In this document: positions 4,841 to 64,000 of the stretch, one piece after another
Position numbering within the stretch: position 1 is the stretch's first letter
Layout: each line of letters begins with the position of its first letter
Assembly (NCBI GenBank): GCA_022771265.1
Contig: JALFCG010000072.1
Coordinates: 1,854 to 65,853 of the forward strand
Length of the DNA stretch: 64,000 nucleotides
Direction: 5' to 3'
Source of the DNA: Prevotella sp.
Lineage (GTDB): Bacteria > Bacteroidota > Bacteroidia > Bacteroidales > Bacteroidaceae
Position numbers and translations under genes: made by a program
The notes under the pieces: model-generated
What the model was told of the DNA's origin: nothing
Database searches by the model: none
What the model saw: the letters and a program-made list of their open reading frames with translations, nothing else

Positions 4841-7750
4841 ATGGAAAAACGTAGGGATGCTAAACGTTTGACACTTTTCGCCGCGGTTGCGGCAATACTG
4901 TCGCTCACCGCCTGTTCAACGCAAAAAAACACGTCGGCAAGCAGATGGTGGCACGCCTTTAACGCAAGATACAACACCTATTTCAACGGCAGCCAGGCAT
5001 TCATCGAGGGGTCACAGGAAAAGGAAGACGGACACCACGACAACTTCACAGAACAGCTGCCGCTCTATCCTGCAGGAACGAAAAGCGGAAAAGACATCGG
5101 CAAGGAAAAGTTTGACAGGGCTATCGAAAAGGTAGAGAAAGCCATCAAAAGGCACAGCATAAAGCGAAGGCCACAATGGACCAAAAGCCGCAGAAAGACC
5201 AAACAGGACCTCGAGTGGCTCGGACGAAAGGAGTACAACCCGTTTATATGGAAGGCATGGCTGCTGCTGGGCAAGTCGCAATTTCAGAAAGGAGAGTTTG
5301 AAGAAGCCGCATCCACATTCTCATACATGTCGCGACTATATGCCACGCAACCTGCAATAAGCGGCATATCAAGGGCTTGGCTCACAAAAAGCTATGCAGA
5401 ACTCGGATGGCTCTACGAGGCGGAGGACGTGATAACGAAGATGAGGCGCGACTCGATGGACTATCGGGCGGTGACCGACTGGGACTATGCCTACTGCGAC
5501 TACTACCTTCACAACGGCAACAGGAAAGAAGCAATAAGATACCTGAAAAAAGTCATAGGCCACGAGCGCAGAAGAAAACTACGAGCAAGACAATGGTACC
5601 TGCTCGGACAGCTCGAAGCCGCAGAAGGCAACAGGAAGGCTGCCGACAAGGCTTTCAGGAAAGTAATCAGCATGAGCCCTCCATACGAGCTTTCATTTAA
5701 CGCACGCATTGCAATGACCGAGGTGGCGGCAAAAGGGAAGGCAAAAACCATGGTAAGCCGACTGAAAAGGATGGCAGCGTCTGACAACAACAAGAACTAC
5801 CTTGAGCAGGTCTATTACGCCATAGGCAACATCTACCTGGCACAACACGACACGCTCAAGGCCATAAGCGCCTACGAAGAAGGCAACAGGAAGGCTACAA
5901 GAAACGGAATAGAGAAAGGAGTGCTGCTGCTCAACCTCGGAAACATCTACTGGACTCGAAAGGACTATGCTAACGCCCAGCGGTGCTACAACGAGGCGAT
6001 TGGCCTGCTCGACAAGGACCGTTGCGACTACGACCAACTGTCGAGACGCTCGGTTGTGCTTGGCCGACTCGTACCTCACGTTGAAACCATACACCTTCAG
6101 GACTCACTCCTATATCTTGCCCAATCGTCTGAGTCAGAACGCATTGCAGCCGCTGACAGACAAATCGCGCTGCTTAGGAAACAGGAAAAGGAAGCCCGCG
6201 AGGCAGCTCTCGACCAAGAAGCGGAGAAACTTCAGCAACAGAACACTGCCGGACAGGAGGCAAGCAACATAAAGCCCACCGTCACACCGAAAACCGACGC
6301 CGCACTGTGGTACTTCTACAACCCTACAGCAGTGGCGCAAGGCAAGGCAGCCTTCGAGAGGAAATGGGGAAGAAGGGAAAACATCGACAACTGGCGACGT
6401 TCCAATCAGACTGTCGTCAAGCTCGACAGCGAAGAAAGCGAAGCCCTGCATGACCCAGAGTCGCAACAAGAGAAGGAGGACACCGCTTCACCTGCGGCAA
6501 CCAGCGACAGTGAACCACAAAAGTCCAAGGACAGCGACGACCCGCACCAGCGAGCCTATTACCTGGCGCAAATCCCGCTCACCAAGGAGCAGAAGGCAGA
6601 GGCAGAGGAGAAACTGAAAGAAGCATTGCTCAATGCCGGCATCGTGATGAAAGACGATATGGACGAGATAGAAGAATCACGAAGGCATCTCGAACGGCTC
6701 TCGAACACATGGCATGACTTCCGGCGCGATGACGAGACCTGCTACCACCTGTTCCTTATTTACCTTCGAAAGGGTGAAGGGCATAAGGCTGACCAAATGG
6801 TCGCCAGACTGAAGGAACGTCATCCCGAAAGCCAATACACCAAGTTGCTCTCCAACCCCTACTACATAGAAGACTCACGATGGGGGGAACATATCGAGGA
6901 CTCCATCTATACCGCCACTTACGAAGCCTTCAAGCAAGGCAGGAACGACGTGGTTAAAGCAAACTTAGGCATCTCCGACCAGCGGTTTGAACAAGGCGAC
7001 AACAGACCGCGCTTCCTCTTTATCGGAGCGTTGACAATGCTCAATGAAGGCGACGCAGAAGGCTGCATAAGAAGAATGACCGAGGTGGTCGAGAAACATC
7101 CTAAGTCGGAAATAGCTGAAATGGCAGGAATGATAGTAAAAGGTGTCAGGCAAGGGAGAAAGCTAAATGGCGTAGGACTTGATGTCGGCGAATTATGGGA
7201 GAGAAGAAGCCACGAGACGCTACGCGACACCACGACAGCCGACACGCTCAGTCTGAATCACGACCAGCCACACGTCGTAATGCTGGCATTCCGCACAGAC
7301 TCCGTAAACAGCAACCAGCTGCTCTACGAGCTGGCAAAACACAACTTCACCAACTACCTCGTGAGGAATTTCGAGATAAAGGTCGAGGACATGGAGGGTA
7401 TCACACGCATGACCGTCAGCGGGTTCCTCAACTACGACGAGGCCTCGCTCTACCGGCGACAGCTCGTCACGTCGTTCCCGCCCATACGGCGACAAGAGTC
7501 GGGCATAAGGCTCTACGTCGTCAGTGAATCGAACATCAAACAGCTCGGCACTACATTCAGCTATGCCGACTACGAAACATTCTTCAACGAGAACATCGCC
7601 CCTGCAGAACCGCCTCAGGAACTGTCGCTCGACGAGCCTGTGGAAGTGGTAGTAAAGGAACAAACGGAAGAAGATGTCGACACAAGCGACAACGGCGAGA
7701 AAGAAGAAACAGAAGAAACATTTGACTTTGACGAAGATTTCTACAGATGA
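4841..7750 (+). CDS. porW: TPR lipoprotein, T9SS PorW/SprE-like
   Basis: 969 aa with lipobox LSLTAC. N-terminal CSTQKNTSASRWWHAFNARYNTYFNG pattern resembles SprE/PorW. TPR-rich and translationally coupled to porX. Confidence 0.65.
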   Translation: MEKRRDAKRLTLFAAVAAILSLTACSTQKNTSASRWWHAFNARYNTYFNGSQAFIEGSQEKEDGHHDNFTEQLPLYPAGTKSGKDIGKEKFDRAIEKVEKAIKRHSIKRRPQWTKSRRKTKQDLEWLGRKEYNPFIWKAWLLLGKSQFQKGEFEEAASTFSYMSRLYATQPAISGISRAWLTKSYAELGWLYEAEDVITKMRRDSMDYRAVTDWDYAYCDYYLHNGNRKEAIRYLKKVIGHERRRKLRARQWYLLGQLEAAEGNRKAADKAFRKVISMSPPYELSFNARIAMTEVAAKGKAKTMVSRLKRMAASDNNKNYLEQVYYAIGNIYLAQHDTLKAISAYEEGNRKATRNGIEKGVLLLNLGNIYWTRKDYANAQRCYNEAIGLLDKDRCDYDQLSRRSVVLGRLVPHVETIHLQDSLLYLAQSSESERIAAADRQIALLRKQEKEAREAALDQEAEKLQQQNTAGQEASNIKPTVTPKTDAALWYFYNPTAVAQGKAAFERKWGRRENIDNWRRSNQTVVKLDSEESEALHDPESQQEKEDTASPAATSDSEPQKSKDSDDPHQRAYYLAQIPLTKEQKAEAEEKLKEALLNAGIVMKDDMDEIEESRRHLERLSNTWHDFRRDDETCYHLFLIYLRKGEGHKADQMVARLKERHPESQYTKLLSNPYYIEDSRWGEHIEDSIYTATYEAFKQGRNDVVKANLGISDQRFEQGDNRPRFLFIGALTMLNEGDAEGCIRRMTEVVEKHPKSEIAEMAGMIVKGVRQGRKLNGVGLDVGELWERRSHETLRDTTTADTLSLNHDQPHVVMLAFRTDSVNSNQLLYELAKHNFTNYLVRNFEIKVEDMEGITRMTVSGFLNYDEASLYRRQLVTSFPPIRRQESGIRLYVVSESNIKQLGTTFSYADYETFFNENIAPAEPPQELSLDEPVEVVVKEQTEEDVDTSDNGEKEETEETFDFDEDFYR

Positions 7751-16674: not shown

Positions 16675-16970
16675 AAAGTTTCCTACCCTTTAGTATAGCA
16701 TACTATATAATCTTTTCATAGCACCCCACTGCATGACAGTAATTTGGATCTCCCCCTAAGATAGGGGGAGTCCCCCAAAGGGGGGAGGGAGTATGAAAAC
16801 GTCAGCACTAGCTCGTTTGACAAATGCTTTTGCTGGAAGCTTGCGCTGAAGGCTCGTGCTGGAAGCTTCTGCTGGAAGGTCATACGCCCCCGTCACTTCG
16901 TGACACCCCCTCTATCTTAGAGGGGGAGCAAGGTTCCCTACTGCATTGAAAATGGCGGGAAAGTTCAGTA
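16675..16970 (+). mobile_element. MITE-like palindromic repeat, copy A (full length, 4 central 13-nt subrepeats)
   Basis: Aligns end to end with copies at 30951-31242, 26637-26894(-), 26233-26423(-), 35308-35493 and 63973-64000. Flanked by TAATTTAA / TAATTTTG. Confidence 0.7.
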
Positions 16971-17011
16971 ATTTTGATTTCGCAAGTTCTCAATATTTCG
17001 GGAATTACTGA

Positions 17012-17072
17012 GTTACGGTGTTACGCAGTTACACTGTTACGCAGTTACAGTGTTACGCAGTTACGGTGTTAC
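17012..17072 (+). repeat. tandem array (GTTACNNN) x8
   Basis: GTTAC at 17012, 17020, 17028 ... 17068, with exact 8-nt period. Spacers are GGT GCA ACT GCA AGT GCA GGT. The last units encode the birA C-terminus and stop. Confidence 0.9.
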
Positions 17073-17822
17073 TCTGAACATCACTTCCTTGAAGGCGTAT
17101 TCCGAGATCTTACCGTCACGTCGGTGTAGAAGGAGGTGGCCGTTGGGCATGATGTCGGCGATTTCAGCCTCAAAGCAGCCTGTGGAGTCTTCGTAGGGGA
17201 AGAAGCCATGGCTGCGGTAGAGGTTCTGCTTGTATGCATCGTCGATGGCAGCATAGTCGCCGTTGTCGATAATGTCAAGATAGTGCCCCATCCTTTCGAT
17301 GATGTCTTTCAACAACAGTTCCCGCTCTGTTTCCCTGCCTGTTATCAGGATGACTGAGACGGGGTTTGGAGCGTCGCTGATGAATAGTTGCTGATTAACG
17401 TTGACACCAATTCCGAGTATGCAAGTCTTGATACCCTCTCCGGCGACCGAACATTCCGACAGCGTTCCGCTGACCTTGAAGTCCTTCCAGTAGATGTCGT
17501 TAGGCCACTTGATAGTGAAGTTGTCATCGTCAGTCAACGCTTTCAATGCGTCTCTGACGGCGAGCGCCCCAGCCTCAAGCATGACATACTGCCTTGCCGC
17601 AGGTAGTTTATTGGGATGACACATGATGCTGAACGTGAGGTTTTTTCCCTTTTCGCTCTCCCAGTGGTTTTTTCCCTGTCCGCGTCCTGCAGTCTGGAAG
17701 TCAGCGACAGCCACCGTCATCCGTTTTCCCTGCAGTCCTTTGTAGGAATGCAGGAAAGCGTTGGTTGAGTTGACCTCGTCAAGATGTAACAGTACTGTAT
17801 TCTGAGCCATTGTCGTCACCAT
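17061..17822 (-). CDS. birA: biotin--[acetyl-CoA-carboxylase] ligase (no N-terminal HTH)
   Basis: 253 aa with GRGQGKNHWES motif. Alternative ATG at 17810. Confidence 0.85.
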   Translation of the reverse strand: MVTTMAQNTVLLHLDEVNSTNAFLHSYKGLQGKRMTVAVADFQTAGRGQGKNHWESEKGKNLTFSIMCHPNKLPAARQYVMLEAGALAVRDALKALTDDDNFTIKWPNDIYWKDFKVSGTLSECSVAGEGIKTCILGIGVNVNQQLFISDAPNPVSVILITGRETERELLLKDIIERMGHYLDIIDNGDYAAIDDAYKQNLYRSHGFFPYEDSTGCFEAEIADIMPNGHLLLHRRDGKISEYAFKEVMFRVTP

Positions 17823-26232: not shown

Positions 26233-26423
26233 TTGTTCCCCCTCTAAGATAGAGGGGGTGTCACGAAGTGACGGGGGCGTATGACCTTCCAGCAGAAGCT
26301 TACAGCACGAGCCTTTAGCACGAGCTTCCTGCAAAAGCATTTGTCAAGCGAGATAATGCTGACGTTTTCATACTCCCTCCCCCCTTCGGGGACTCCCCCT
26401 ATCTTAGGGGGAGAGCCAAATTA
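26233..26423 (-). mobile_element. MITE-like repeat, copy B (both termini missing)
   Basis: The core aligns with copy C and has 4 central subrepeats. It lies in the 5' leader of the GH43 gene. Confidence 0.65.
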
Positions 26424-26572
26424 GTTATGAGCGCAGAGTGCTAAGACTTGGCATTCGTCTTGACTCCTTAACTTCTTTACTCCTTAACTACCAACTATTT
26501 CCTTTACTTCCGATAGTTGAGTTATATACTTAAGTTTCGCAAGCTGTTAAATGGACAGTCTTCTTTTTTCTG

Positions 26573-26604: not shown

Positions 26605-26636
26605 CTTTTTACAGATTATTTTTTCAGGAGCCAACT

Positions 26637-26894
26637 TAACAGAACTTCCCCACCCTTTTCCATGCAGTTGAGTAACTTGTTCCCCCTCTAAGATAGAGGG
26701 GGTGTCACGAAGTGACGGGGGCGTATGACCTTCCAGCAGAAGCTTCCAGCACTAGCCTTCAGCACGAGCTTCCTGCAAAAGCATTTCTCAAGCGAGATAA
26801 TGCTGACGTTTTCATACTCCCTCCCCCCTTCGGGGGACTCCCCCTATCTTAGGGGGAGAGCCAAATTACTGTCATGCGGTGGAGGTGGTCTGAT
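26637..26894 (-). mobile_element. MITE-like repeat, copy C (one terminus truncated)
   Basis: Near-identical to copies A and D in reverse orientation. The terminal GAACTTCCCCACCC inverted repeat is present on one side only. Confidence 0.7.
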
Positions 26895-26929
26895 TTAACT
26901 CCTGAAAAAACTCCTTAACTCCTGAAAAG

Positions 26930-27175
26930 CTAAGTACTGTCTATCGCCTTCTGTTCGGTTGACACTTCGGCGGTGAAGTCGCCTTTCTTCAGGCGGATGG
27001 TCTTGCCGCCGGTGGCCGACTCGATGAAGGAGGGCACTTGCGACAGCGTTGCGAAGGCAAGCAGAAGGCCTACGGCTGTCAGCACACTGGAATCAATGAC
27101 CCCCATCGGTGGGCAGAAGAATCCACCCACGATGAGGAGCACTGAGAGAGTGAGGGTCAGATGAAACACACGCAT
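26930..27175 (-). CDS. small two-TM membrane protein (holin-like topology)
   Basis: 81 aa. Two hydrophobic helices and a charged C-terminal tail. Sits 19 nt downstream of the HU-like gene. Confidence 0.5.
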   Translation of the reverse strand: MRVFHLTLTLSVLLIVGGFFCPPMGVIDSSVLTAVGLLLAFATLSQVPSFIESATGGKTIRLKKGDFTAEVSTEQKAIDST

Positions 27176-27194
27176 GGCTCACAGTCGTTAAGTT

Positions 27195-27878
27195 TTATTC
27201 GCCTATGTCGCCAACGCCGCCTTCATCAGTGGTCCCGCCACCTGACGGGTTGCCGGAGCCACTGTCAGAGCCACTGCCCGAGCCGCTGTCAGAGCCGCTG
27301 CCCGAGCCGCTGCCGGAGTCGCTGCCCGACGGGGTGTCGGCTACGGTGAGGTCAACGGTGGTCTGCCCTGCCTTGATTGCCTTGAGCACGGCAGCCTGTG
27401 CGTTGCGGCTTGCTACGAGGTTGAACTCTGCGTCGGCGAGCAGGTTTTTGAACTCCATGCCCGGCTCCCACATGACGTTGACAGAGGTGATGTTCTGCGC
27501 AGAGAACTTGTCGGCAGTCTCCGCTCCCTTCGAGCTGAGGGTGATGTAGAAGTCGCCGAGGTCGCCCAAGCGTATCTTCTTCCCCTCTAAGAGCTGCTCA
27601 CGCATGCAATCGACGGCGAGGTAGAGGATGGCGGAGATGTCGGCGCGTGAATAGACGGTGCCGTGGGTTGCGATGTGGCGTGCAAACTTCTCGATGGTCA
27701 TCACGTCGGTGTACTGTGCGATAGCGAAGGCGTTCTGCACTTCGGTCTTGACGAGGTCGAGGTCTGCCTGTTCCGGCTCTTTTCCCTCGTTGCGGGCGAG
27801 TTTGATGCGAGCCTTTGCAAGGTTGATTTCGAAGAGGTTGGCGTTGACGCCACGCATTACGATGCTGTAGTTAATCAT
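27195..27878 (-). CDS. HU-like (histone-like) DNA-binding protein with Ser/Gly/Asp-rich C-terminal tail
   Basis: The track start at 27887 is TTG; I use the ATG at 27878 (MINYSIVMRG...). The Bacteroidales HU-like fold region is ...IEKFARHIATHGTVYSRADISAILYLAVDCMREQLLEGKKIRLGDLGDFY. The tail is SGSDSGSGSGSGSDSGSGSGSDSGSG, encoded by a 12-nt periodic DNA repeat. Confidence 0.75.
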   Translation of the reverse strand: MINYSIVMRGVNANLFEINLAKARIKLARNEGKEPEQADLDLVKTEVQNAFAIAQYTDVMTIEKFARHIATHGTVYSRADISAILYLAVDCMREQLLEGKKIRLGDLGDFYITLSSKGAETADKFSAQNITSVNVMWEPGMEFKNLLADAEFNLVASRNAQAAVLKAIKAGQTTVDLTVADTPSGSDSGSGSGSGSDSGSGSGSDSGSGNPSGGGTTDEGGVGDIGE

Positions 27879-28015
27879 GGTTGTCAAAGTGTTTTAGTTG
27901 TTAGTAATCGGTTGGTTTCTCGCTGTGACCTTCCTAGCTTTAACCTATGGCTTCAGGCTGTAATTACTTGTGGCCTCGCCTTGGCATAAGTAGCGGCCGT
28001 TTCCGGTTCACGTTG

Positions 28016-28023
28016 CAAAGGTA
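28016..28023 (-). promoter_or_regulatory. -7 promoter box TACCTTTG
   Basis: Plus strand reads CAAAGGTA, about 140 nt upstream of the HU-like gene. Confidence 0.5.
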
Positions 28024-28123
28024 CGAATTATTTTCTTACGTTCTCCGGTTTTCGCTGAGTTTGTTGGAAAAATGGTGCGACTTTTTTTGCGTGTCAAATG
28101 TTTTTACCTCCGAGGGAGTGGCA

Positions 28124-28166
28124 AAGCGTAACTCGTAACAGTGTAACTCGTGTTTTTCACTGTTAC
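28124..28166 (+). repeat. GTAAC module copy 1 (26-mer + hairpin)
   Basis: Exact AAGCGTAACTCGTAACAGTGTAACTC at 28124-28149. The hairpin pairs GTAACAGTG (28135-43) with CACTGTTAC (28158-66). Confidence 0.85.
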
Positions 28167-28225
28167 GCTTTCACTTAGCCTTATATACATTATTAATAAA
28201 TAATAATTAAATAAGTATAACTCTA

Positions 28226-28249
28226 GGAGTTAAGGAGTTAAGGAGTTAA
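28226..28249 (+). repeat. tandem array (GGAGTTAA) x3
   Basis: Perfect 8-nt repeats containing the 11-mer AGTTAAGGAGT twice. The same 11-mer occurs on the minus strand at 26463, 26479 and 26910. Confidence 0.85.
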
Positions 28250-28274
28250 GACATTTGTTTTGGGAGTTATGTGG

Positions 28275-28317
28275 GTGTAACTCAATTTTTGCAGTTACAC
28301 TGTTACGAGTTACGCTT
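28275..28317 (-). repeat. GTAAC module copy 2 (inverted)
   Basis: Minus strand AAGCGTAACTCGTAACAGTGTAACTG matches the 26-mer at 25/26 positions. It is followed by the hairpin GTGTAACT-N10-AGTTACAC. Its second TAA is the stop of CDS 28303..28977. Confidence 0.85.
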
Positions 28318-28977
28318 TTCGTCCTTTGTCGGGTCAAGCAGGTTGACCATTCGGTCGATGGCGGCTTTCGCCTTCTTCGGGGTCTTCTGCTTGTTCCAGG
28401 AACCAAACTGCCGACTGTCGCTATCGAGGAAATGACTGCCCGTGACTACCCATATCGAGCTGCCTTGCGGTAGGCTGATGAGCAGCTTCTCCTCAAGGGT
28501 CTTGACGAGATAGTAGAGATTGGCCTGCGGTGCCGTCCACTTCACCTTCACCGGGTTTGCCTCTCCCTCGAAGATGGCGTTGAAGTCGTCGGGCTTCGTA
28601 TCCTGGTGAATCCATCCTGCCCTGAGCAACGCCTTGTAAAGCTGCACCAGACGTGTGTAGCCGCCTTCGTGGTTGAGAAAGCGATAGGTGAACACTTCAT
28701 CGACCACACGTGGCTTCAAAGGCGTGCTGCGGCGCTTACGGGGAGCTGACGGCTGTGCGGAAGGCAGCTGTGCGGCTGTCTGCTGTGCGGAAGGCAGCTG
28801 TGCGGCTGGCTGCTGTGCTGCAGGCTCTGTAGCGTAGTTATAGACGTTCTGCACGGCAATGCCTCCGCTCTCGACGTTTCCTATTTCGTATTCGACGTTT
28901 TTCTCGAACACTATTTCCGTTTTAGAGGCGTCAACTCCCAACGCCTTCAGTATTTCGATTTTATCTTCCAGTTTCAT
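28303..28977 (-). CDS. hypothetical protein with Ala/Gln-rich repeat linker
   Basis: 224 aa. A small N-terminal domain, the linker AAQQPAAQLPSAQQTAAQLPSAQPSA (30-nt DNA repeat), then a roughly 140-aa C-terminal domain. No family recognised. Confidence 0.6.
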   Translation of the reverse strand: MKLEDKIEILKALGVDASKTEIVFEKNVEYEIGNVESGGIAVQNVYNYATEPAAQQPAAQLPSAQQTAAQLPSAQPSAPRKRRSTPLKPRVVDEVFTYRFLNHEGGYTRLVQLYKALLRAGWIHQDTKPDDFNAIFEGEANPVKVKWTAPQANLYYLVKTLEEKLLISLPQGSSIWVVTGSHFLDSDSRQFGSWNKQKTPKKAKAAIDRMVNLLDPTKDEKRNS

Positions 28978-29005
28978 AAGTCTTGTCTCTTAGTTTCGTA
29001 TGTGC

Positions 29006-30124
29006 TCAATTTTTCTTCACTCCTATTGCTCCCTGACTGACGTTGGCGATGTAGGACTCGACACTTTGCTCCAACACAAACTGCGCTCCTTGCTGCACGA
29101 CGATGAATCTTGCATCCACGTCCTGCAATCGCTTCTTGAGCTGCGCCCGCGCCTCTGCCCATTTTGGGTCGTCATTGCCGTAGAGTATTTCCATGAGCAT
29201 GTCATAGACGGGCTTGATCTCGTTGTAGCGTGACGTGCTATTCATGCAGTAGTTTACGATTCTGTCCAGTGTGAGAAGTTCCTCAAGCTTGGCGGGCTTC
29301 TTGGATGCTTCCGCTTCAGCGACTGCTTCTGAGGCAACCGGAGCTGCTTCCGGGGCTGCCGAAGCTGCTGCTTCCGAGGCAACCGGAGCTACTGACGGAG
29401 CTGCCTTGACCGCTGCTTTCTGAGCTGCCTTGACCGCTGCTTCTGGAGCAACCGGCTCTTTTTCTGCTGCTGCAATTATCGATGCTTTGGGCACCACTAT
29501 GGCTTCCGCGTTTTTGATAGCCTTTGCAGCCTTTTCCGCTGCTTTCTCTGCCAAGATTTTTTCACGGCTGCTGGCTTTGCTGTGGTTTATGGTCCACTCG
29601 CCGACAGTTACCGGTATTTTGACCGCAGGTGTAAGGTTCACCGTTGTCACCGGTATTTTTACCGCAAGCCTTTCTTTAGCAATACTGTTAATCGCTCGTT
29701 GTATCGACGGTGAAGTCTTTGCCTTCAATGCTAGGTCGGCGGCTTTCTTCCCGCTTTGTGCTCCCTTGTAGGTGGGGTCATAGACAGTGCTGGCTTTCAC
29801 GACTCCGACTGTCACCTGACCGTCAACGTGCTTGCCGTTGGACGTCATAGGCCGATGGTTGTTTTTCGCGCCGTTGACGTAGCGTGCGAGAATGTACTCT
29901 GCAAGCCGCTTGTTGTCGCCTTGACTTCGGATTTGAAAAGTAATCTGACTGATGATGCCAGCGTACTCGCTTGCTAAACGCTGCGAGAACATCAAGTTGG
30001 CAACTCGCTTCATAGCCATTCTGTCCGTCATCGCCCCAAGCAGAAGAGTGGACATTTTCATGATGGTAGGTGTCATGTTCGTCATAACTTCAGGTTTTAA
30101 TAAATTAGTTATAAAAAAGTCCAT
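29006..30124 (-). CDS. hypothetical protein with Ala-rich low-complexity linker
   Basis: 372 aa with an internal AVKIPVT duplication and an A/E/K/P/V-rich linker. The start is uncertain, with several in-frame ATGs in the first 24 codons. Confidence 0.55.
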   Translation of the reverse strand: MDFFITNLLKPEVMTNMTPTIMKMSTLLLGAMTDRMAMKRVANLMFSQRLASEYAGIISQITFQIRSQGDNKRLAEYILARYVNGAKNNHRPMTSNGKHVDGQVTVGVVKASTVYDPTYKGAQSGKKAADLALKAKTSPSIQRAINSIAKERLAVKIPVTTVNLTPAVKIPVTVGEWTINHSKASSREKILAEKAAEKAAKAIKNAEAIVVPKASIIAAAEKEPVAPEAAVKAAQKAAVKAAPSVAPVASEAAASAAPEAAPVASEAVAEAEASKKPAKLEELLTLDRIVNYCMNSTSRYNEIKPVYDMLMEILYGNDDPKWAEARAQLKKRLQDVDARFIVVQQGAQFVLEQSVESYIANVSQGAIGVKKN

Positions 30125-30375
30125 AATCTCTGAACAAGCTCATTGTCAACCACTTACGCTCTGCATCGCGCTCCCGTTCCGACCTTTCTGTATCAATTTT
30201 CGGCACGATTTCGCTTCGATGCCGAAAAAAAATGCAGTATAAGGGTAGAAGCCGTCACACGCAAGGCGAGAGGCCTCCAAGGCGCCAATGGGCTGACGTC
30301 GGGTCGTGTGGCGAGACAAGTCACCTGCTTCTGGTTGCAAAAATAATACTTTTTAATAAACAAACAAAGAAAATT

Positions 30376-30945
30376 ATGAAAAAATTGACTTTCAACCCAA
30401 AATTTCTTGTCAAGCCGTTCAGAAACGGCAGACTTTACCCTTGTTTCGGCACCAGTTTCGACATCACTACCGTCTTGTGCCAGCGAGTGATTAACCTTGA
30501 AGACTACCGCCAGGGCATCTGCGACATGACGGAAGACAAGGCAGAAGAGCTGCGCCACCACCAGCCGGTGTTCTACCTGCAGCAACAGGCTGATGCCTTC
30601 ACCGACAACGGCGACGGGGCAAGGCTACGCCACAGGTGGAACGGCCTGCTGCTCTTCTCAAAGCGCGACAAGAAGTGGACACGCATCACGGTGATGGAGA
30701 ACAGAAAGGAGTGGAACGTGGTGCTTTCATTCGAAGACCCCGACAAGGACCGCTACTGGTTTGTGGTTGACACAAAGGAGACGTCGTTCGACGAGGAGAC
30801 CTTCTGGTGTGACCGGGCGATGTGGAAGGCAAAGCTCGACGAGGACCTCGACAGCGTCACCGCCTACGACTACAGCTACTACGTACGCGCCCTCATGCCC
30901 GAACACTATGACATCGTTGACCGCGAGGTACTGTTTGGAGAATAA
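30376..30945 (+). CDS. hypothetical protein
   Basis: I prefer the ATG at 30376 (MKKLTFNPKF...) within track ORF 30232..30945. A-rich leader; 189 aa; no family recognised. Confidence 0.5.
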   Translation: MKKLTFNPKFLVKPFRNGRLYPCFGTSFDITTVLCQRVINLEDYRQGICDMTEDKAEELRHHQPVFYLQQQADAFTDNGDGARLRHRWNGLLLFSKRDKKWTRITVMENRKEWNVVLSFEDPDKDRYWFVVDTKETSFDEETFWCDRAMWKAKLDEDLDSVTAYDYSYYVRALMPEHYDIVDREVLFGE

Positions 30946-30950
30946 ACTCA

Positions 30951-31242
30951 ATTGAACTTTCCCACCCTTTTAGAATAGCATTACAATATGGTATTATCAG
31001 AGCACCTCCACTGCATGACAGTAATTTGGCTCTCCCCCTAAGATAGGGGGAGTCCCCCGAAGGGGGGAGGGAGTATGAAAAACGTCAGCACTATCTCGCT
31101 TGACAAATGCTTTTGCTGGAAGCTCGTACTGGAAGCTTCTGCTGGAAGGTCATACGCCCCCGTCACTTCGTGACACCCCCTCTATCTTAGAGGGGGAACA
31201 AGTTACTCAACTGCATGGAAAGGGGGTGGGAAAGTTCTGTAA
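30951..31242 (+). mobile_element. MITE-like repeat, copy D (full length, 3 central subrepeats)
   Basis: Terminal inverted repeats GAACTTTCCCACCC / GGGTGGGAAAGTTC. Flanked by TAAACTCA / TAAACTTA. Inserted between two same-strand genes of the accessory block. Confidence 0.75.
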
Positions 31243-31268
31243 ACTTAAACCACTAAAAAAAAACGACC

Positions 31269-31589
31269 ATGTACAAGAAAAAATTCCACAACGTCAGCCT
31301 TACATGCATGCTGCAGGGCGAGACAGAAGGCACACTGGAAAAGTGCCGCCACGGAGTGTTGACAAAGACCAACGACGGATTCCGCTTCGAAGAGTCGGTG
31401 AAGAGAACGAAATACGCTCCCAACCCGCAACTCTTCTCAGGAGACCACGTCAAACTCACACGCCTGAAAAACGGCAACTACCGCATCAACGTCAGGGAAA
31501 TCGACGCATCGACCATCACCGACGCCAACGCCCTCGCCTTCAGCATCTACTGCGAATTACAAACCGCCTACAGAACCATCGTATTATGA
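31269..31589 (+). CDS. hypothetical protein
   Basis: 106 aa. ATGA overlap with the downstream ATPase gene suggests coupling. Confidence 0.5.
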   Translation: MYKKKFHNVSLTCMLQGETEGTLEKCRHGVLTKTNDGFRFEESVKRTKYAPNPQLFSGDHVKLTRLKNGNYRINVREIDASTITDANALAFSIYCELQTAYRTIVL

Positions 31590-33001
31590 AAAAACCAGAA
31601 TCAATAGAAAAGAAAAGACGGCCCTCACTCACGGGGGCCGACTTCCCACCGGCAGTGCGCGTGTTCTGGGAAGGAGCACCCGACCAGTTCAAGAACGCAA
31701 GCGTGCTGGCTGCCATCACCTGCTACTGCGCACTCGGCACAAGGCTCAGGGCACGCTACGTCTATGACATCGACCTGCACGCACTGCTGCTGCAAGTGCT
31801 GATCATCGGAGAGCCTGGATCGGGAAAGTCGTTCACAAGGTCGATAGTAAAACAGCTGATGAGACCAATACGCATCAAGGACCAGGAGATGAAACGACTG
31901 GAACAGGCATACGCCGAACTCAAACGCACAATGGCGAAAAACAAGCAGCTGCCCGACGAACCCCTCACCGCCACTCGCATGGTGCAGACCATCACCAAGG
32001 CGAAACTCGTCAAGCGAGCCGACATGTTCGTAAGGAAATACGGCGAGACTCTTGCCTTCTTCTTCTTCTCGGAAGAGCTCTCGACCATGACCGAGTCAAA
32101 CAAGCGAGCCTTCGCCGACCTTAACACCATGGACCGCCTTGCCTACGACCTCGGAGCCGAATTCTCCTCCGACACCCTCTCTGACGCAAGCTACAACGCC
32201 GACGTTGACATCATCTACTGCAGCCTCTTCTGCGGCACGGAGAACGCGCTCAACGACTATATCAACAAGCGGGCGGTGGAAGGGGGCAACTGCACAAGAA
32301 AGGTCATCGTGCACATCGACGAGGACCTCATGGGAGAAGACGCTCCCGTGTTCCGCCAACAGACCGAAGAGGAGCGACAAGCCGTGGAAAAAGCCGTCAA
32401 CATGCTCATGGCTGAAACCTACACCGACGACGACCTGCTGCAGCCAGTACACGAGATACCCATGGAATGGATCGACACGGCTGTAAAGAAATGGTGCGCA
32501 CAGAAACGGCAGGAAGTGCTCAAGACCGGGTCAAGAGCCCTCAACTGCTTCTACAAGCGAGCATCGGTGTCGGCATTCCGCATGACCGCACTCATCTACC
32601 ACCTATGGGGCGAGGACAACGACAAGGACGCAACCGACAACATTCAGAAACGGTGCATTCGCTTCTACCGCTACATGGCACAGTTCATACTCGACGGACT
32701 CTTGGCAAAATGGGGAAGGCAGTACGAAGTGCTGCACAAAGGCGACGTGCAGGACGACGGCAACCGAGTCACCCTCTTCGACCAGCTCCCCGACCGCTTC
32801 AGCCGCGACCAGCTGCGCGAACTCATCGTCAAGCTCGACCTCTCGTCACCCGACCGCATCTTCATCGCAAAATGGAAAAAGATGAAACTGGTCAACCAGC
32901 CTGACGAGAAACAGGAAATCTACTACAAAACAAATCCACAACAAAAAAACCAACCATCATGCAACCCACCGACATCAACCGACTCCGGGGGCTGCCAATA
33001 G
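31586..33001 (+). CDS. P-loop NTPase, putative replicative helicase (DUF3987-like)
   Basis: I use the ATG at 31586 (MKKPESIEKK...); the longer track ORF from 31100 reads through MITE copy D. Walker A is IIGEPGSGKS and Walker B-like is FFFFSEE. Immediately upstream of, and overlapping, a primase gene. Confidence 0.65.
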   Translation: MKKPESIEKKRRPSLTGADFPPAVRVFWEGAPDQFKNASVLAAITCYCALGTRLRARYVYDIDLHALLLQVLIIGEPGSGKSFTRSIVKQLMRPIRIKDQEMKRLEQAYAELKRTMAKNKQLPDEPLTATRMVQTITKAKLVKRADMFVRKYGETLAFFFFSEELSTMTESNKRAFADLNTMDRLAYDLGAEFSSDTLSDASYNADVDIIYCSLFCGTENALNDYINKRAVEGGNCTRKVIVHIDEDLMGEDAPVFRQQTEEERQAVEKAVNMLMAETYTDDDLLQPVHEIPMEWIDTAVKKWCAQKRQEVLKTGSRALNCFYKRASVSAFRMTALIYHLWGEDNDKDATDNIQKRCIRFYRYMAQFILDGLLAKWGRQYEVLHKGDVQDDGNRVTLFDQLPDRFSRDQLRELIVKLDLSSPDRIFIAKWKKMKLVNQPDEKQEIYYKTNPQQKNQPSCNPPTSTDSGGCQ

Positions 33002-33915
33002 AAGAGGTGGCAAAAAGGCTTGGCGTCGGCATCTCACGGCACCAGGCCCTTTGCCCCTTCCACGACGACAGCCACCCCTCGCTACACTTCAGCGAGAAAA
33101 GAAACACATTCAAGTGCTTCGTATGCGGAGCCCACGGCAGCTCCATCGACCTCGCCATGCGCGTACTCGCGAAAAACTTCACCGAGGCTTGCCAATGGCT
33201 TGCCGACGAACACAACATCATCATCGCCACAACGCCTACAACCACTGACACGGAAAAGAAAGGCAACACCACCTTCGACCCGGCACGCTACCTGCCATAC
33301 ATCGACCACCCGACACTAAGCCCCAAGGCACGGCAATTCCTCTACGACCAAAGGGAAATCGACCCAAGGGTGGCACAATGGTGCAGGCTCAGCTCATGGA
33401 AAGACAAAAAAGGCGTCAACTGGCTGTTCATACCCTACTTCGACATCGAAGGAAAACTCATAGGGGTGCAGAACCGAAACCTCGACTACCGCAAGGACAA
33501 GCCCGACGCCACCGGAGCACCACGATTCCGCTTTCCACGAGGATGCAAGTGCGCCATCTACAACCTGCCCGTGCTGAAAATGCTCAAGAAAGACGAGCCC
33601 CTATTCATCACAGAAGGTACTTCCGACTGCTGGGCGATGCTCTCAAGCGGACACAAGGCTATTGCAATACCAAGCGCAACGGCGCTCGGAAGGGACGGAC
33701 GCATGACGCTCAGGCAATTCACCGACAACTACGGACCGCTAAACCTGCACATGTATCCCGACGCCGACATCCCCGGCGAAAAACTGTACCTCGAACTCGT
33801 GGCGCTGGCAACCGAACTTAAGTCGTGCATCACACGACACTCGCTGCCCTACGGATGCAAGGACTTCGCCGAATACTTCATCAGCAAGCATCAAAACAAC
33901 ATTCAACTATCTTAA
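32959..33915 (+). CDS. DNA primase, CHC2 zinc finger + Toprim domain
   Basis: 318 aa. Zinc finger is CPFHDDSHPSLHFSEKRNTFKCFVCGAHG. Toprim motifs are FITEGTSDCWAM and YPDADIPGE. Confidence 0.85.
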   Translation: MQPTDINRLRGLPIEEVAKRLGVGISRHQALCPFHDDSHPSLHFSEKRNTFKCFVCGAHGSSIDLAMRVLAKNFTEACQWLADEHNIIIATTPTTTDTEKKGNTTFDPARYLPYIDHPTLSPKARQFLYDQREIDPRVAQWCRLSSWKDKKGVNWLFIPYFDIEGKLIGVQNRNLDYRKDKPDATGAPRFRFPRGCKCAIYNLPVLKMLKKDEPLFITEGTSDCWAMLSSGHKAIAIPSATALGRDGRMTLRQFTDNYGPLNLHMYPDADIPGEKLYLELVALATELKSCITRHSLPYGCKDFAEYFISKHQNNIQLS

Positions 33916-33928
33916 ACTCAACAAGACC

Positions 33929-34801
33929 ATGGACATAACAATTAAAAGAACAACAACCAACCTTCTGTTCACCACAGGGGAAATATTCATCAACGGCAAG
34001 CGACAGGCCTTCACCGTCGAACCTACGCAGACAATGCTGCCCAACGGCATCTACACCGTCAGATACGCTCAAAAGGCTAAGCTGGAACGAAGACTGCAAA
34101 TCGTAGGCAAAAACAAACAGGCTGACGGCACAAAAACGGAAAGACAACACAAAGGATGGGCTATCGGAGCGGTCAACTCGTGGATTGACGCAAGGAAGAC
34201 AAAAACGATTGGCATTGGCGAACCTCTCATTCCGGGAGTGGTGACGCAATCGGCAAAAGTGACAAGGCGAATAACCAACAGGCTCGAGAAATGCAAGCAA
34301 AGAGGAGAAACCGCCACTCTCGTCATCACAGGACTAAAGGAACTAAAATGCGTGCCACGCTTCTGGAACCGCTTCACAAGCATCCTCACAACAGCTGCAC
34401 TCACCGCCACACTGGCACTGACGCTCACGGCATGCTCCTCACAACGCCACTTGCAGCAGGACATCGGCAGGTCAAGCCGCGACTCCGTCAGCATGAGAAC
34501 ACTACGCTACGACTCCATCTTCATCTACGAAAGCCACACCACCGACTACCGTCATGCCGCCGACACCTCCATGACCAACGACGGCATACGCGTCGATACC
34601 GTCTTCGTGAACGACAAAAGCATCGAATACCGCTACCGCATCAAGAAAGACACCGTCGTCAAGACGGCTATCGACACGATACCTGTCGTGCACGACGTAG
34701 TGACCGTAAAGGAAGTGGCACGCACACCTCTGCTGACCCAAATGCTCGCCATCGTCGGCATATTCGCATTGGCTATAGGCGCAGTGAAATACATCAAATA
34801 A
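33929..34801 (+). CDS. hypothetical two-part protein: N-terminal DUF5675-like domain, internal lipoprotein signal, C-terminal TM anchor
   Basis: 290 aa. An internal in-frame GTG at 34352 is followed by PRFWNRFTSILTTAALTATLALTLTAC (lipobox). C-terminal TM is LLTQMLAIVGIFALAIGAV. Confidence 0.55.
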   Translation: MDITIKRTTTNLLFTTGEIFINGKRQAFTVEPTQTMLPNGIYTVRYAQKAKLERRLQIVGKNKQADGTKTERQHKGWAIGAVNSWIDARKTKTIGIGEPLIPGVVTQSAKVTRRITNRLEKCKQRGETATLVITGLKELKCVPRFWNRFTSILTTAALTATLALTLTACSSQRHLQQDIGRSSRDSVSMRTLRYDSIFIYESHTTDYRHAADTSMTNDGIRVDTVFVNDKSIEYRYRIKKDTVVKTAIDTIPVVHDVVTVKEVARTPLLTQMLAIVGIFALAIGAVKYIK

Positions 34802-34825
34802 CAAAACATTAACTCACAAAAAAAC

Positions 34826-35272
34826 ATGACCAAACTCACAACTCACTTCACACTGGCGGAGTTCACACGCTCCGCCACTGCCTTGTCAAAAGGCATCGAT
34901 AACACGCCATCCAACGAGGCAATAGCCAACATGCGCCACCTCTGCGAGGAAGTGCTCGAACCGCTCAGGGATGCATTCGGAGAGCCCGTGACCGTGTCAA
35001 GCGGCTACCGTTCGAAGACGCTGAACGCCGCTGTTGGTGGAAGTCCTACAAGCCAGCACATGCGTGGTGAGGCTGCCGACATAGCTCCAACCGCCACTGC
35101 CGAAGGGAAGAAGCGGCTGAAGGAATGGATGAGATGGATTATCGACAACACCGACTTCGACCAGTGCATCTTCGAGCGCAACTCATCCGGCACCTGTTGG
35201 ATTCACGTCTCAGCCTGTCGTAACCCGTCGCGCAACCGCCACCACGTCATCTCCTCGCTCAAGAAAGCGTAA
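34826..35272 (+). CDS. peptidase M15 family (D-Ala-D-Ala carboxypeptidase/endolysin-like) metallopeptidase
   Basis: 148 aa. SGYRS...SQHMRGEAADI...WIHVS zinc-ligand pattern of Peptidase_M15A-type cell-wall hydrolases. Confidence 0.85.
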   Translation: MTKLTTHFTLAEFTRSATALSKGIDNTPSNEAIANMRHLCEEVLEPLRDAFGEPVTVSSGYRSKTLNAAVGGSPTSQHMRGEAADIAPTATAEGKKRLKEWMRWIIDNTDFDQCIFERNSSGTCWIHVSACRNPSRNRHHVISSLKKA

Positions 35273-35307
35273 CTCGTAACAGTGTAACTCAAAAAAAACA
35301 GTTACAT
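35265..35307 (+). repeat. GTAAC module copy 3
   Basis: Exact 26-mer at 35265-35290. Its first TAA is the stop of the M15 peptidase. The hairpin is GTGTAACT-CAAAAAAAAC-AGTTACAT. Confidence 0.85.
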
Positions 35308-35493
35308 ATTGAACTTTCCCACCCTTTTAGAATAGCATTACAATATGGTATTATCAGAGCACCTCCACTGCATGACAGTAATTTGGCTCTCCCCCTAAGG
35401 GTCATACGCCCCCGTCACTTCGTGACACCCCCTCTATCTTAGAGGGGGAACAAGTTACTCAACTGCATGGAAAAGGGTGGGGAAGTTCAGTTA
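35308..35493 (+). mobile_element. MITE-like repeat, copy E (internal deletion of about 105 bp)
   Basis: Both termini are intact and the centre is missing, with the junction at CCCCCTAAG|GTCATACG. Flanked by TTACATAT on both sides. Confidence 0.75.
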
Positions 35494-35502
35494 CATATAT
35501 TT

Positions 35503-35542
35503 CAAGTTGACAAGTTGACGAGTTGACAAGTGGACAAGTGGA
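35503..35542 (+). repeat. tandem array (CAAGTTGA-like) x5
   Basis: Units are CAAGTTGA CAAGTTGA CGAGTTGA CAAGTGGA CAAGTGGA, with 8-nt period. Confidence 0.85.
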
Positions 35543-35630
35543 CAGCATGTCACATATATGGGAATTTTGAGTCAGTTACACAAAAAAGACAGAGAGATGC
35601 TGACCATCACGGTTCATCCGTGCGTCATAG

Positions 35631-35673
35631 AAGCGTAACTCGTAACAGTGTAACTCGAAATTTTCAGTTACAC
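35631..35673 (+). repeat. GTAAC module copy 4
   Basis: Exact 26-mer at 35631-35656 plus the hairpin GTGTAACT-CGAAATTTTC-AGTTACAC. Not preceded by a credible gene. Confidence 0.85.
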
Positions 35674-35764
35674 TAAAGAAATTCTTCATTAAAAAAAACA
35701 GAGGGCGCTAACCTTCACGGTCGACGCCCCATGTTATTTATAAAAAGTAGCTTTTGTCCAAAAA

Positions 35765-53074: not shown

Positions 53075-53094
53075 AAGCTATCGTTTTTTTCCTG

Positions 53095-53157
53095 AAAGTC
53101 TAGAAAGTCTAGAAAATCTAGAAAATCTAGAAAATCTAGAAAGTCTAGAAAGTCTAG
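53095..53157 (+). repeat. tandem 9-nt array (AAARTCTAG) x7
   Basis: Units are AAAGTCTAG x2, AAAATCTAG x3, AAAGTCTAG x2, a mirror-symmetric order. Each unit carries the palindrome TCTAGA. The array is followed by an A-rich tract. Confidence 0.9.
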
Positions 53158-53203
53158 AAAAAAAAATCAACCATAGAAAAAAAACAAAAAAAAAGATAAT
53201 AAT

Positions 53204-63972: not shown

Positions 63973-64000
63973 ATTGAACTTTCCCACCCTTTAGAATAGC
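63973..64000 (+). mobile_element. MITE-like repeat, copy F (left end only; cut by the window edge)
   Basis: ATTGAACTTTCCCACCCTTTAGAATAGC matches the left ends of copies D and E. Confidence 0.6.

Follow-up and report, generated by a model that had tools for sequence, protein, structure and literature searches.

Inverted GTAAC Arrays With an Origin-Like Layout in a Helicase-Primase Island of Pig-Gut Prevotellaceae

Introduction

What role is played by a short GTAAC-rich module that occurs four times around a single 7-kb gene block? The question is raised by a 64,000-nt stretch of Prevotella sp. DNA (assembly GCA_022771265.1, contig JALFCG010000072.1, positions 1,854 to 65,853; hereafter the window, in whose numbering positions are given), where the copies, termed c1 to c4, lie between positions 28,123 and 35,673. 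A sequence-only reading had proposed that they serve as a portable terminator or 3'-end cassette, as recombination or transposition termini, or as iteron-like protein-binding sites.

The window is a segment of a Prevotellaceae chromosome with relatives in pig-gut metagenomes, and the sister metagenome-assembled genome GCA_029099785.1 is colinear with it. The repeats belong to a gain-or-loss island of pig-gut Prevotellaceae that has its own helicase and primase. Comparison across lineages indicates that the modules are probably island-linked protein-binding arrays. More tentatively, and short of calling it probable, we propose that c1, c2 and the AT-rich core between them form a replication origin of the island, resembling that of staphylococcal pathogenicity islands (SaPIs), and that c3 and c4 would be extra iteron clusters marking the far end of the block.

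Repeat Modules in the Window

A pattern search of the window located the 26-mer AAGCGTAACTCGTAACAGTGTAACTC exactly at 28124-28149(+), 35265-35290(+) and 35631-35656(+), and with one mismatch at 28292-28317(-). No match was obtained in 100 dinucleotide-preserving shuffles of the window. The pentamers GTAAC and GTTAC are rarer than expected (61 observed against ~125 expected), and 24 of the 61 occurrences fall in five clusters, namely c1 to c4 and a further array at 17 kb; mononucleotide shuffles gave a mean of 0.15 such clusters and a maximum of 2. Both the 26-mer and the GTAAC clusters are far above chance, and four of the five repeat sites in the 64 kb lie in one island. The arrays and the AT-rich core are as follows.

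28123..28171, plus strand: c1, the arm nearest the HU-HIG gene
28172..28274, unstranded: AT-rich core, holding the tandem 8-mer GAGTTAAG x3 (28225-28250) and the conserved TATATAAGG motif
28275..28318, minus strand: c2, the arm farther from the HU-HIG gene, made of a hairpin (28275-28300) and the 18-nt terminus AAAGCGTAACTCGTAACA; holds the stop codon of a 224-aa gene
35264..35307, plus strand: c3, the arm at the far end of the helicase-primase operon; holds the stop codon of the M15 peptidase gene
35631..35673, plus strand: c4, an extra arm adjoining the terminator of the TPR gene; the sole copy in strain L159 and missing in L163
17011..17076, minus strand: fifth GTAAC array, eight units with a period of 8 or 16; overlaps the stop codon of a birA-like gene

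Copies c2, c3 and c4 each continue into an 8-bp hairpin, GTGTAACT-N10-AGTTACA(C/T). The pairing in c1 differs, with AAAGCGTAAC...GTTACGCTTT and GTAACAGTG/CACTGTTAC forming a longer palindrome; here AAAGC, three GTAAC units, an inverted GTTAC and GCTTT follow one another to make a 49-nt palindrome. Copies c2 and c3 are inverted relative to each other over 43 nt (88% complementary), with eight genes between them. The four copies, their hairpins with the alternative pairing in c1, and the inversion of c2 and c3 around the eight-gene block had all been described in the sequence-only reading, and each was recovered here. That reading had overlooked that c1 and c2 are perfectly inverted relative to each other over 26 nt (28123-28148 and 28293-28318), the arms being separated by 144 nt, and that c3 and c4, both inverted to c2, are direct repeats of c1.

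The interval enclosed by the c1/c2 pair is AT-rich over ~105 of its 144 nt. The region 28167-28274 has 72% A+T with a peak of 86%, and the segment 28180-28239 is among the top 0.2% of 60-nt windows for A+T.

Arm Architecture Across Lineages

Related islands were reached through homologues of the 224-aa protein and of the helicase. The architecture of the arrays, not their exact sequence, is kept in at least six lineages and in different genome contexts. These islands share an HU-HIG gene, two unknown genes, a DUF3987 helicase, a DnaG-type primase and an M15 peptidase. The arm consensus is AAGC-G(T/A)AAC-N1-2-G(T/A)AAC-N2-3-G(T/A)AAC, with pentamers 6-8 bp apart from start to start, and an inverted fourth pentamer often stands 3' of the arm, making a hairpin. 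The window belongs to a GTAAC lineage together with L062/L157, L160 and L164. The other loci are listed below with the identity of their 224-aa homologue to that of the window.

L066: GTAAC, 54%; the 205-aa gene stops EEA* within AAGCGTAACTCGTAACTCTGTAAC, with an inverted arm 330 nt on, ahead of the HU-HIG promoter; further copies are AAAGCGTAACCCGTAAC after the M15 gene and a solo copy 4 kb away
L069: GTAAC with spacing 6-7, 44%; AAGCGTAACCGTAACCCGTAAC arms around 114 nt upstream of the HU-HIG gene, gene order rearranged; further copies are two direct ones around a HinfI-type restriction-modification cassette
L072: GTTAAC/GTAAC, 38%; arms GTTAAC-GTTAAC-GTAAC, with a third copy overlapping the primase stop codon
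L063, L064 and L156: all units GAAAC, ~41-42% for L063 and L064 (not measured for L156); in L156 a third copy lies in the 3' end of the last operon gene

The most conserved feature is the arm pair with its AT-rich core beside the HU-HIG promoter, which had escaped the sequence-only reading. The inter-arm spacer measures 102-119 nt in seven of eight loci, with 70-84% A+T and peaks of 84-100% per 50 nt. HU-proximal arms lie 241-572 nt upstream of the HU-HIG start codon in L066, L069, L072, L064 and L156, and the TATATAAG motif is found near this arm in all lineages. In the window, the sequence TACCTTTG at 28016-28023(-), ~100 nt from c1, is presumably the -7 box of the HU-HIG gene, which we assign on the Bacteroidetes promoter consensus. 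The promoter form GTAnCTTTGCAnCGTGA is common to the four lineages aligned through it, and the arm nearest the HU-HIG gene stands ~100 nt or more upstream of it. At least one further arm is present past the helicase-primase pair. In the window, L066, L069, L072 and L156 this far copy has the orientation of the HU-proximal arm, of which it is a direct repeat, and runs opposite to the distal arm.

The pentamer switches in concert between lineages (GTAAC, GAAAC, GTTAAC), and the T-to-A change of the GAAAC lineage hits every unit of every arm. Such a concerted switch is as expected for sites that co-evolve with a binding protein. The same arm positions are kept by islands whose 224-aa proteins are only 38-54% identical. 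Taken together, the short phased units, the inverted arms, the positions kept at low protein identity and the concerted switch therefore argue for sequence-specific protein-binding arrays that are under selection and not for chance or fresh spread. Of the roles first suggested, the iteron-like one is thus the one that gains from the cross-lineage comparison.

Exact and degenerate searches for the module in 185,579 species-representative genomes and in the JGI metagenomes returned only chance-level unrelated matches, so the GTAAC version appears to be lineage-restricted, or its source genome was masked. In IMG/VR, the exact arm was not found, and a scan with the primase gave no island relatives, only zinc-finger-level matches. 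The degenerate arm pattern gave chance-level matches there and one true pair, in the 'viral' contig L172 (IMGVR_UViG_3300018495_002707, positions 5033-5182).

The L172 pair is of the L069 type, with a 107-nt AT-rich spacer and the 8-mer GCATAAGC x3 ahead of it. The pair, 460 nt upstream of a tyrosine integrase gene, also has RadC and another short open reading frame (ORF) resembling a recombinase as neighbours, and is the sole case of arms adjoining a recombinase. The restriction-modification cassette of L069 (3348-7670; methylase, endonuclease and HNH protein) adjoins the island and lies between two direct GTAAC arm copies, an arrangement which suggests that cassettes accrete between arm copies.

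Stop Codons Within the Arrays

The observation that two genes stop inside the module at different TAA triplets was confirmed. The 224-aa gene (28303..28977, -) ends GAA AAG CGT AAC TCG TAA (EKRNS*) at the second TAA of c2, and its last five codons lie in the array. The M15 gene (34826..35272, +) ends AAG AAA GCG TAA (KKA*) at the first TAA of c3. The fifth array, at 17011-17076, had not been noticed before; it lies outside the island and supplies the stop codon of the birA-like housekeeping gene (RVTP*).

Homologues of the 224-aa protein that are ~40% identical still end in ...RNS*, encoded by CG(T/A)AACTCGTAA, and the C-termini at the array read DEKRNS*, DEWRNA* and TETRNS*. Conserved RNS-type C-termini at this level of identity indicate that the array has long abutted this gene end. 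Because every pentamer holds a TAA and the array abuts the 3' end of the gene, the donation of stop codons would be a by-product of the repeat. Candidate binding-site arrays can be written into the last codons of a gene, and such ...RNS-type C-termini would be by-products of a constraint at the DNA level.

Island Genes and Structural Variants

The island and its immediate surroundings hold the following features.

26930..27175, minus strand: 81-aa membrane protein
27195..27878, minus strand: HU-HIG DNA-binding protein, assigned by profile match
28123..28318, unstranded: c1, AT-rich core and c2
28303..30124, minus strand: 224-aa (28303..28977) and 372-aa unknown proteins
30367..31589, plus strand: 192-aa and 106-aa unknown proteins
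31586..33001, plus strand: DUF3987 (MCM-like) helicase, candidate initiator
32959..33915, plus strand: DnaG-type primase with CHC2 zinc finger and Toprim domain
33929..34801, plus strand: DUF5675/transmembrane protein, the transmembrane segment judged by eye
34826..35272, plus strand: M15 peptidase
35264..35673, unstranded: c3, variable spacer S1 and c4
28301..35281, unstranded: 7-kb block of eight genes with inverted 18-nt termini, missing from the conspecific contig L163

The island has no integrase, repressor or packaging gene. Among its unknown proteins, Pfam, NCBIfam and PHROGs detected no recombinase, HUH Rep or regulator even at E <= 10, and no recombinase was noticed among the other ORFs of the window, most of which were inspected by eye.

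Two further properties of the island proteins were observed. The C-terminal domain of the 224-aa protein (residues ~90-215) was modelled with a predicted local distance difference test score (pLDDT) above 90 and had no PDB match. Its one borderline match was an uncharacterised gut podovirus protein (E = 1.4e-3), and the model may represent a new fold. Three island genes contain in-frame low-complexity repeats: a GS-rich HU-HIG tail (27251-27329), AQ(Q/L)P units in the 224-aa protein (28745-28834) and an A/E/S-rich stretch in the 372-aa protein (29318-29476). Protein lengths vary among strains: the 224-aa protein is 214-234 aa long, and HU-HIG, as called, 181-231 aa.

Alleles of the locus were taken as contigs that carry the identical PstS-like neighbour. 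In their comparison, S1 denotes the variable spacer between c3 and c4, and S2 the segment next to the c2 hairpin, towards the core, that carries the GAGTTAAG 8-mers. Contig L163 is without the island. Reading from the TPR gene, it shows the TPR terminator, a diverged S1 (~65% identical to the window by eye), a single hairpin GTGTAACTGCAAAAATTGAGTTACAC, the 8-mers of S2 (93% identical to window 28300-28228), window positions 26624-26549 and a GH43 gene. The window differs from it in two places. One difference is the 7-kb block with its inverted 18-nt termini (TGTTACGAGTTACGCTTT ... AAAGCGTAACTCGTAACA) together with a second hairpin; the other is a separate 1.6-kb segment, 26625-28227, which comprises a MITE (miniature inverted-repeat transposable element), the 81-aa gene, the HU-HIG gene, c1 and the AT core. 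Homology of L163 to the window stops at 28300/28301, exactly between the c2 array and the hairpin. The empty site of L163, the only empty allele found and a diverged one, thus has one copy of the hairpin core, while the filled site of the window and L164 has the core at both junctions.

Strain L159 keeps c4, but its sequence parts from that of the window precisely where c4 has its 5' end (35630/35631) and runs into a RadC gene. The earlier suggestion that c2 and c3 are the termini of the block gains support: one island-free conspecific allele has its junction between the c2 array and hairpin, and a second allele breaks at c4. The c3-c4 spacer differs among the strains compared, and the c1-c2 interval has the same orientation in all four independent conspecific assemblies, a small sample. 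Within that spacer, positions 35590-35625 are a degenerate second copy of the TPR intrinsic terminator at 35697-35735 (CAGAG, hairpin, A/T run), so the unit duplicated between c3 and c4 is longer than the 43-nt module.

Contig L158 joins the operon of the 106-aa and helicase genes (L158 16900-17500) to pyrH through a hybrid MITE. At face value this would be a 14-kb deletion removing birA and purH, so that a rearrangement or misassembly at the 290-nt repeat is more likely, and the contig was not used as evidence.

Proposed Origin and Its Candidate Initiator

DUF3987 proteins are described as MCM-like replicative helicases that carry a winged helix-turn-helix at the C-terminus, usually encoded next to a primase (PMC4889955). 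SaPI origins contain 6-12 penta- or hexanucleotide iterons, half of them on each side of an AT-rich region and in opposed directions, and the self-loading Rep helicase, encoded next to a primase, binds them through a winged helix at its C-terminus (PMC9371898). At least two iterons per side in opposed directions were found in the window, L066, L069, L072, L063, L064 and L156, with a central AT-rich region between the iteron sets.

By analogy, an island protein would bind the pentamers on both sides and the AT-rich core would then melt. The C-terminal winged helix of the DUF3987 helicase, acting as initiator, would be the most likely binder; the DnaG-type primase would subsequently prime, and HU-HIG may serve as a bending factor. 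Copies c3 and c4 would provide further binding clusters and, at the same time, delimit the 7-kb block at its other end. In the structure model of the helicase, the last 55 residues (395-450) have a pLDDT of 67-88 per 10-residue block and a winged-helix-like beta-alpha-alpha-beta-beta order. The putative recognition helix reads PDRIFIAKWKK in GTAAC lineages and PERIFINKWKR in GAAAC lineages.

Several observations weigh against the origin proposal. The model of the whole helicase is poor (mean pLDDT 55.6, too poor for a fold search), and no relative was found among solved structures by sequence or profile. The substitution in its C-terminus is confounded by phylogeny, the three GAAAC loci being close relatives. 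The arm pair is more tightly linked to the HU-HIG promoter than to the helicase gene, ~3.3 kb away. It stands upstream of that gene across a divergent operon and not, like a SaPI origin, immediately downstream; only a single arm copy, c3, is downstream of the operon. An origin does not explain why the extra copies always lie past the helicase-primase pair in fixed orientation, nor why the breakpoints of structural variants coincide exactly with the edges of modules. In L163 the arrays are missing while the hairpin of c2 and the 8-mers next to it are retained, which is awkward for c1, core and c2 as one unit. Solo copies also occur outside islands, at 17 kb in the window, at 15254 in L066, at 16773 in L156 and in L159.

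No homologue of the helicase was found on plasmids, and the single 'phage' match was a 5.5-kb virome scaffold, unannotated and free of arrays, which carries an IS110-like ORF.

Comparison With Known Systems

The island resembles SaPIs and other phage-inducible chromosomal islands in having short iterons in opposed directions on both sides of a central AT-rich region, in encoding both a primase and a helicase, here with a predicted winged-helix C-terminus, and in an iteron sequence that varies between element lineages (PMC9371898). It differs in its Bacteroidota host, in its DUF3987 (MCM-like) helicase and DnaG-type primase, in an origin-like site beside the HU-HIG promoter and ~3.3 kb from the helicase instead of just downstream of rep, in the extra arm copies that bound the gene block, and in its lack of integrase, repressor and packaging genes.

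Iteron plasmids such as R6K, RK2, F, P1 and pPS10 likewise place arrays of initiator sites beside an AT-rich unwinding element. They carry extra iteron clusters away from the origin, which act in control. Their iterons are mostly direct repeats of 17-22 bp, in contrast to the pentamers with 6-8-bp phasing and inverted sets found here, and their initiator is a Rep with WH1-WH2 domains, in contrast to the helicase initiator proposed here. Rolling-circle and CRESS-DNA (circular Rep-encoding single-stranded DNA) origins likewise have three or four short direct iterons, set immediately next to a stem-loop whose loop is rich in A/T; the difference is that the island has no recognisable HUH Rep and that the loops of the copies are not conserved in sequence.

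Alternative Explanations

The main rival to the binding-array and origin reading holds that the modules are site-specific recombination sites of attachment (att) type, and we regard it as possible but on the unlikely side. The hairpin GTGTAACT-N10-AGTTACAC would be the core site and the adjacent direct GTAAC units the arm-type sites. A recombinase encoded elsewhere, for example a global Bacteroidales tyrosine recombinase, would move the block and neighbouring cassettes with HU-HIG bending the DNA, and c1, with its order of array, core and array, would resemble a joined attP-like site. A palindromic core with flanking direct repeats is indeed the layout of lambda att and of Bacteroides recombinase sites, and known Bacteroides invertase sites have GTTAC/GTAAC pentamers as their conserved core (PMC4611039, PMC12118408); there, however, the motif is GTTAC-N7-GTAAC, and here it is GTAAC-N12-GTTAC. 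The variants fit this model: L163 has one hairpin between S1 and S2, against one at each junction in the window, where the arrays lie towards the element, L159 breaks from the window precisely at c4, and the c3-c4 spacer is variable. The L163 junction could also arise without a dedicated enzyme, by deletion between the 9-bp direct repeats of the two hairpins. The presumed overlap loops are unlike, CAATTTTTGC in c2 and CAAAAAAAAC in c3 on the plus strand differing at 6 of 10 positions, and no inversion or excision product was seen. The restriction-modification cassette between the direct L069 arms and the integrase gene beside the L172 pair speak for recombination; the neighbouring HU/IHF-family protein and the polysaccharide loci around related islands are further likenesses to the known att and recombinase sites. 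Yet tblastn with the L172 integrases found nothing in the 64-kb window, in nine related loci or within 10 kb of the islands, and the scanned island proteins contain no recombinase domain. The HU-HIG gene, the arm pair and the block occur together in all lineages, so the block seems not to move alone, and the outer side of the HU-HIG gene is without an arm. The origin and recombination-site models are not exclusive.

The remaining explanations concern regulation, RNA ends and repeat spread. It is improbable that the arms are merely the operator or enhancer of an ordinary regulator, controlling the HU-HIG promoter and acting as a roadblock at the operon end with no part in replication or mobility. 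The tightest linkage is that of the arm pair to the HU-HIG promoter, even in the rearranged L069 and L072, and arrays phased at 7-8 bp resemble the heptad operators of ribbon-helix-helix proteins. The arms, though, stand ~100-300 nt upstream of the -7 box and not over it, extra copies at gene 3' ends coincide with gain-or-loss boundaries, and profile scans of the island found no recognisable regulator. A selfish or structural intergenic repeat, such as a repetitive extragenic palindrome (REP), a bacterial interspersed mosaic element (BIME) or a MITE, or an RNA 3'-end hairpin serving as terminator or stabiliser, that spreads to gene ends and lacks any role specific to the island, is highly doubtful. 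Like REPs, the modules are short, palindromic and intergenic; sense copies overlap stop codons at gene 3' ends, including that of housekeeping birA, inverted pairs are BIME-like, copies within a genome are homogenised over ~40 nt, and assemblies break at modules. REPs, however, number hundreds per genome and depend on a REP-associated tyrosine transposase (RAYT), whereas the module is few-copy within the window, island-linked, position-conserved and lineage-switched. Only five sites occur in the 64 kb, the exact module is missing from the 185,579 species genomes and the JGI metagenomes, and positions kept at 38-54% protein identity with a concerted pentamer change are unexpected for recent spread; no RAYT-like gene was recognised among the ORFs of the window, most of them inspected only by eye. 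The hairpins are weak (-7.6 to -12.4 kcal/mol, z-scores -1.6 to -2.9) and AU-rich without a U tract, a terminator-like site was called at none of the copies, and some copies lie in divergent promoter regions (L066 15254, L069 7653), all of which tells against the portable terminator or 3'-end cassette first suggested; an Rfam scan of the window gave two tRNAs only. Barely credible is an invertible switch in which c1 and c2 are the inverted repeats of a phase-variable promoter, as at Bacteroides capsule loci. The perfect 26-bp inverted repeat around 144 bp, the pentamer similar to Bacteroides invertase sites and the location of L066 and L156 within polysaccharide loci would suit it, but the fixed orientation in four of four conspecific assemblies gives no sign of the inversion that had been considered between copies, at least for the c1-c2 interval. 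The TATATAAG motif stays near the HU-proximal arm in all lineages, no TAnnTTTG promoter box was seen in the segment in either direction when read from the sequence, and no invertase gene was found nearby. The terminator, REP-element and invertible-switch readings were set aside as poorly supported.

Other Repeats Around the Island

A MITE-like element of ~290 nt occurs in six copies. Its termini are the inverted repeats TGAACTTTCCCACCCTTTT, GC hairpins CCCCCTCTATCTTAGAGGGGG lie inside it, and it contains a 13-nt minisatellite. Its copies are located as follows.

16677-16967
26233-26430 (partial)
26637-26894
30951-31238
35308-35489 (internally deleted)
63973-64000 (cut by the window end)

The element is missing at orthologous conspecific sites, in L160 at 30945-31246 and in L164 and L005 at 35308, and assemblies break at it. 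Module c3 directly adjoins the unrelated copy at 35308-35489, which was inserted into the hairpin arm of c3 and made a duplication of ~9 bp there, ATATGTAAC. The fifth GTAAC array lies 43 nt from another copy.

Tandem arrays with an 8-nt period were found at 28225-28250 (GAGTTAAG x3), 35503-35544 (CAAGTTGA x5) and 26458-26489, and in the relatives L064 (6170-6370), L156 (6769-6830), L072 (4893-4931) and L163 (3955-4090). Across four conspecific assemblies the number of GAGTTAAG units is 3-5, the CAAGTTGA array varies too, and one indel boundary of the island-free allele lies inside an 8-nt-period array. A 9-nt tandem repeat, GAAAGTCTA x7.4 with 96% identity, is located at 53094-53160 between two efflux or ABC-type cluster genes.

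Conclusion

Cassettes that combine an HU-like gene with a DUF3987 helicase, a primase and a cell-wall hydrolase abound in gut Bacteroidales; the helicase search alone returned more than 1,200 proteins. We found no account in the literature of their purpose, replication, movement or repeats. As proposed here, the arrays would act as origin or termini of an iteron-type system in a Bacteroidota island that has no integrase. The present analysis adds a conserved origin-like iteron architecture, an iteron specificity that switches in concert between lineages, and an empty-site allele whose boundaries are resolved to the base pair.

The islands of L066 and L156 lie within polysaccharide loci, and in Bacteroides such cassettes are often found next to capsule loci. 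A broader, speculative and rather unlikely extension is that these HU-HIG, DUF3987, primase and peptidase cassettes form a hitherto unrecognised class of integrase-less mobile replicons, in which one array family would serve as both origin and termini, insertion would take place into palindromic GTAAC hairpins or through host recombinases acting in trans, and neighbouring cassettes, for example restriction-modification systems or blocks of glycosyltransferase genes, would accrete between copies. If this were true, the arrays would constitute a recombination grammar for shuffling surface-polysaccharide and defence cassettes in Prevotella and Bacteroides.

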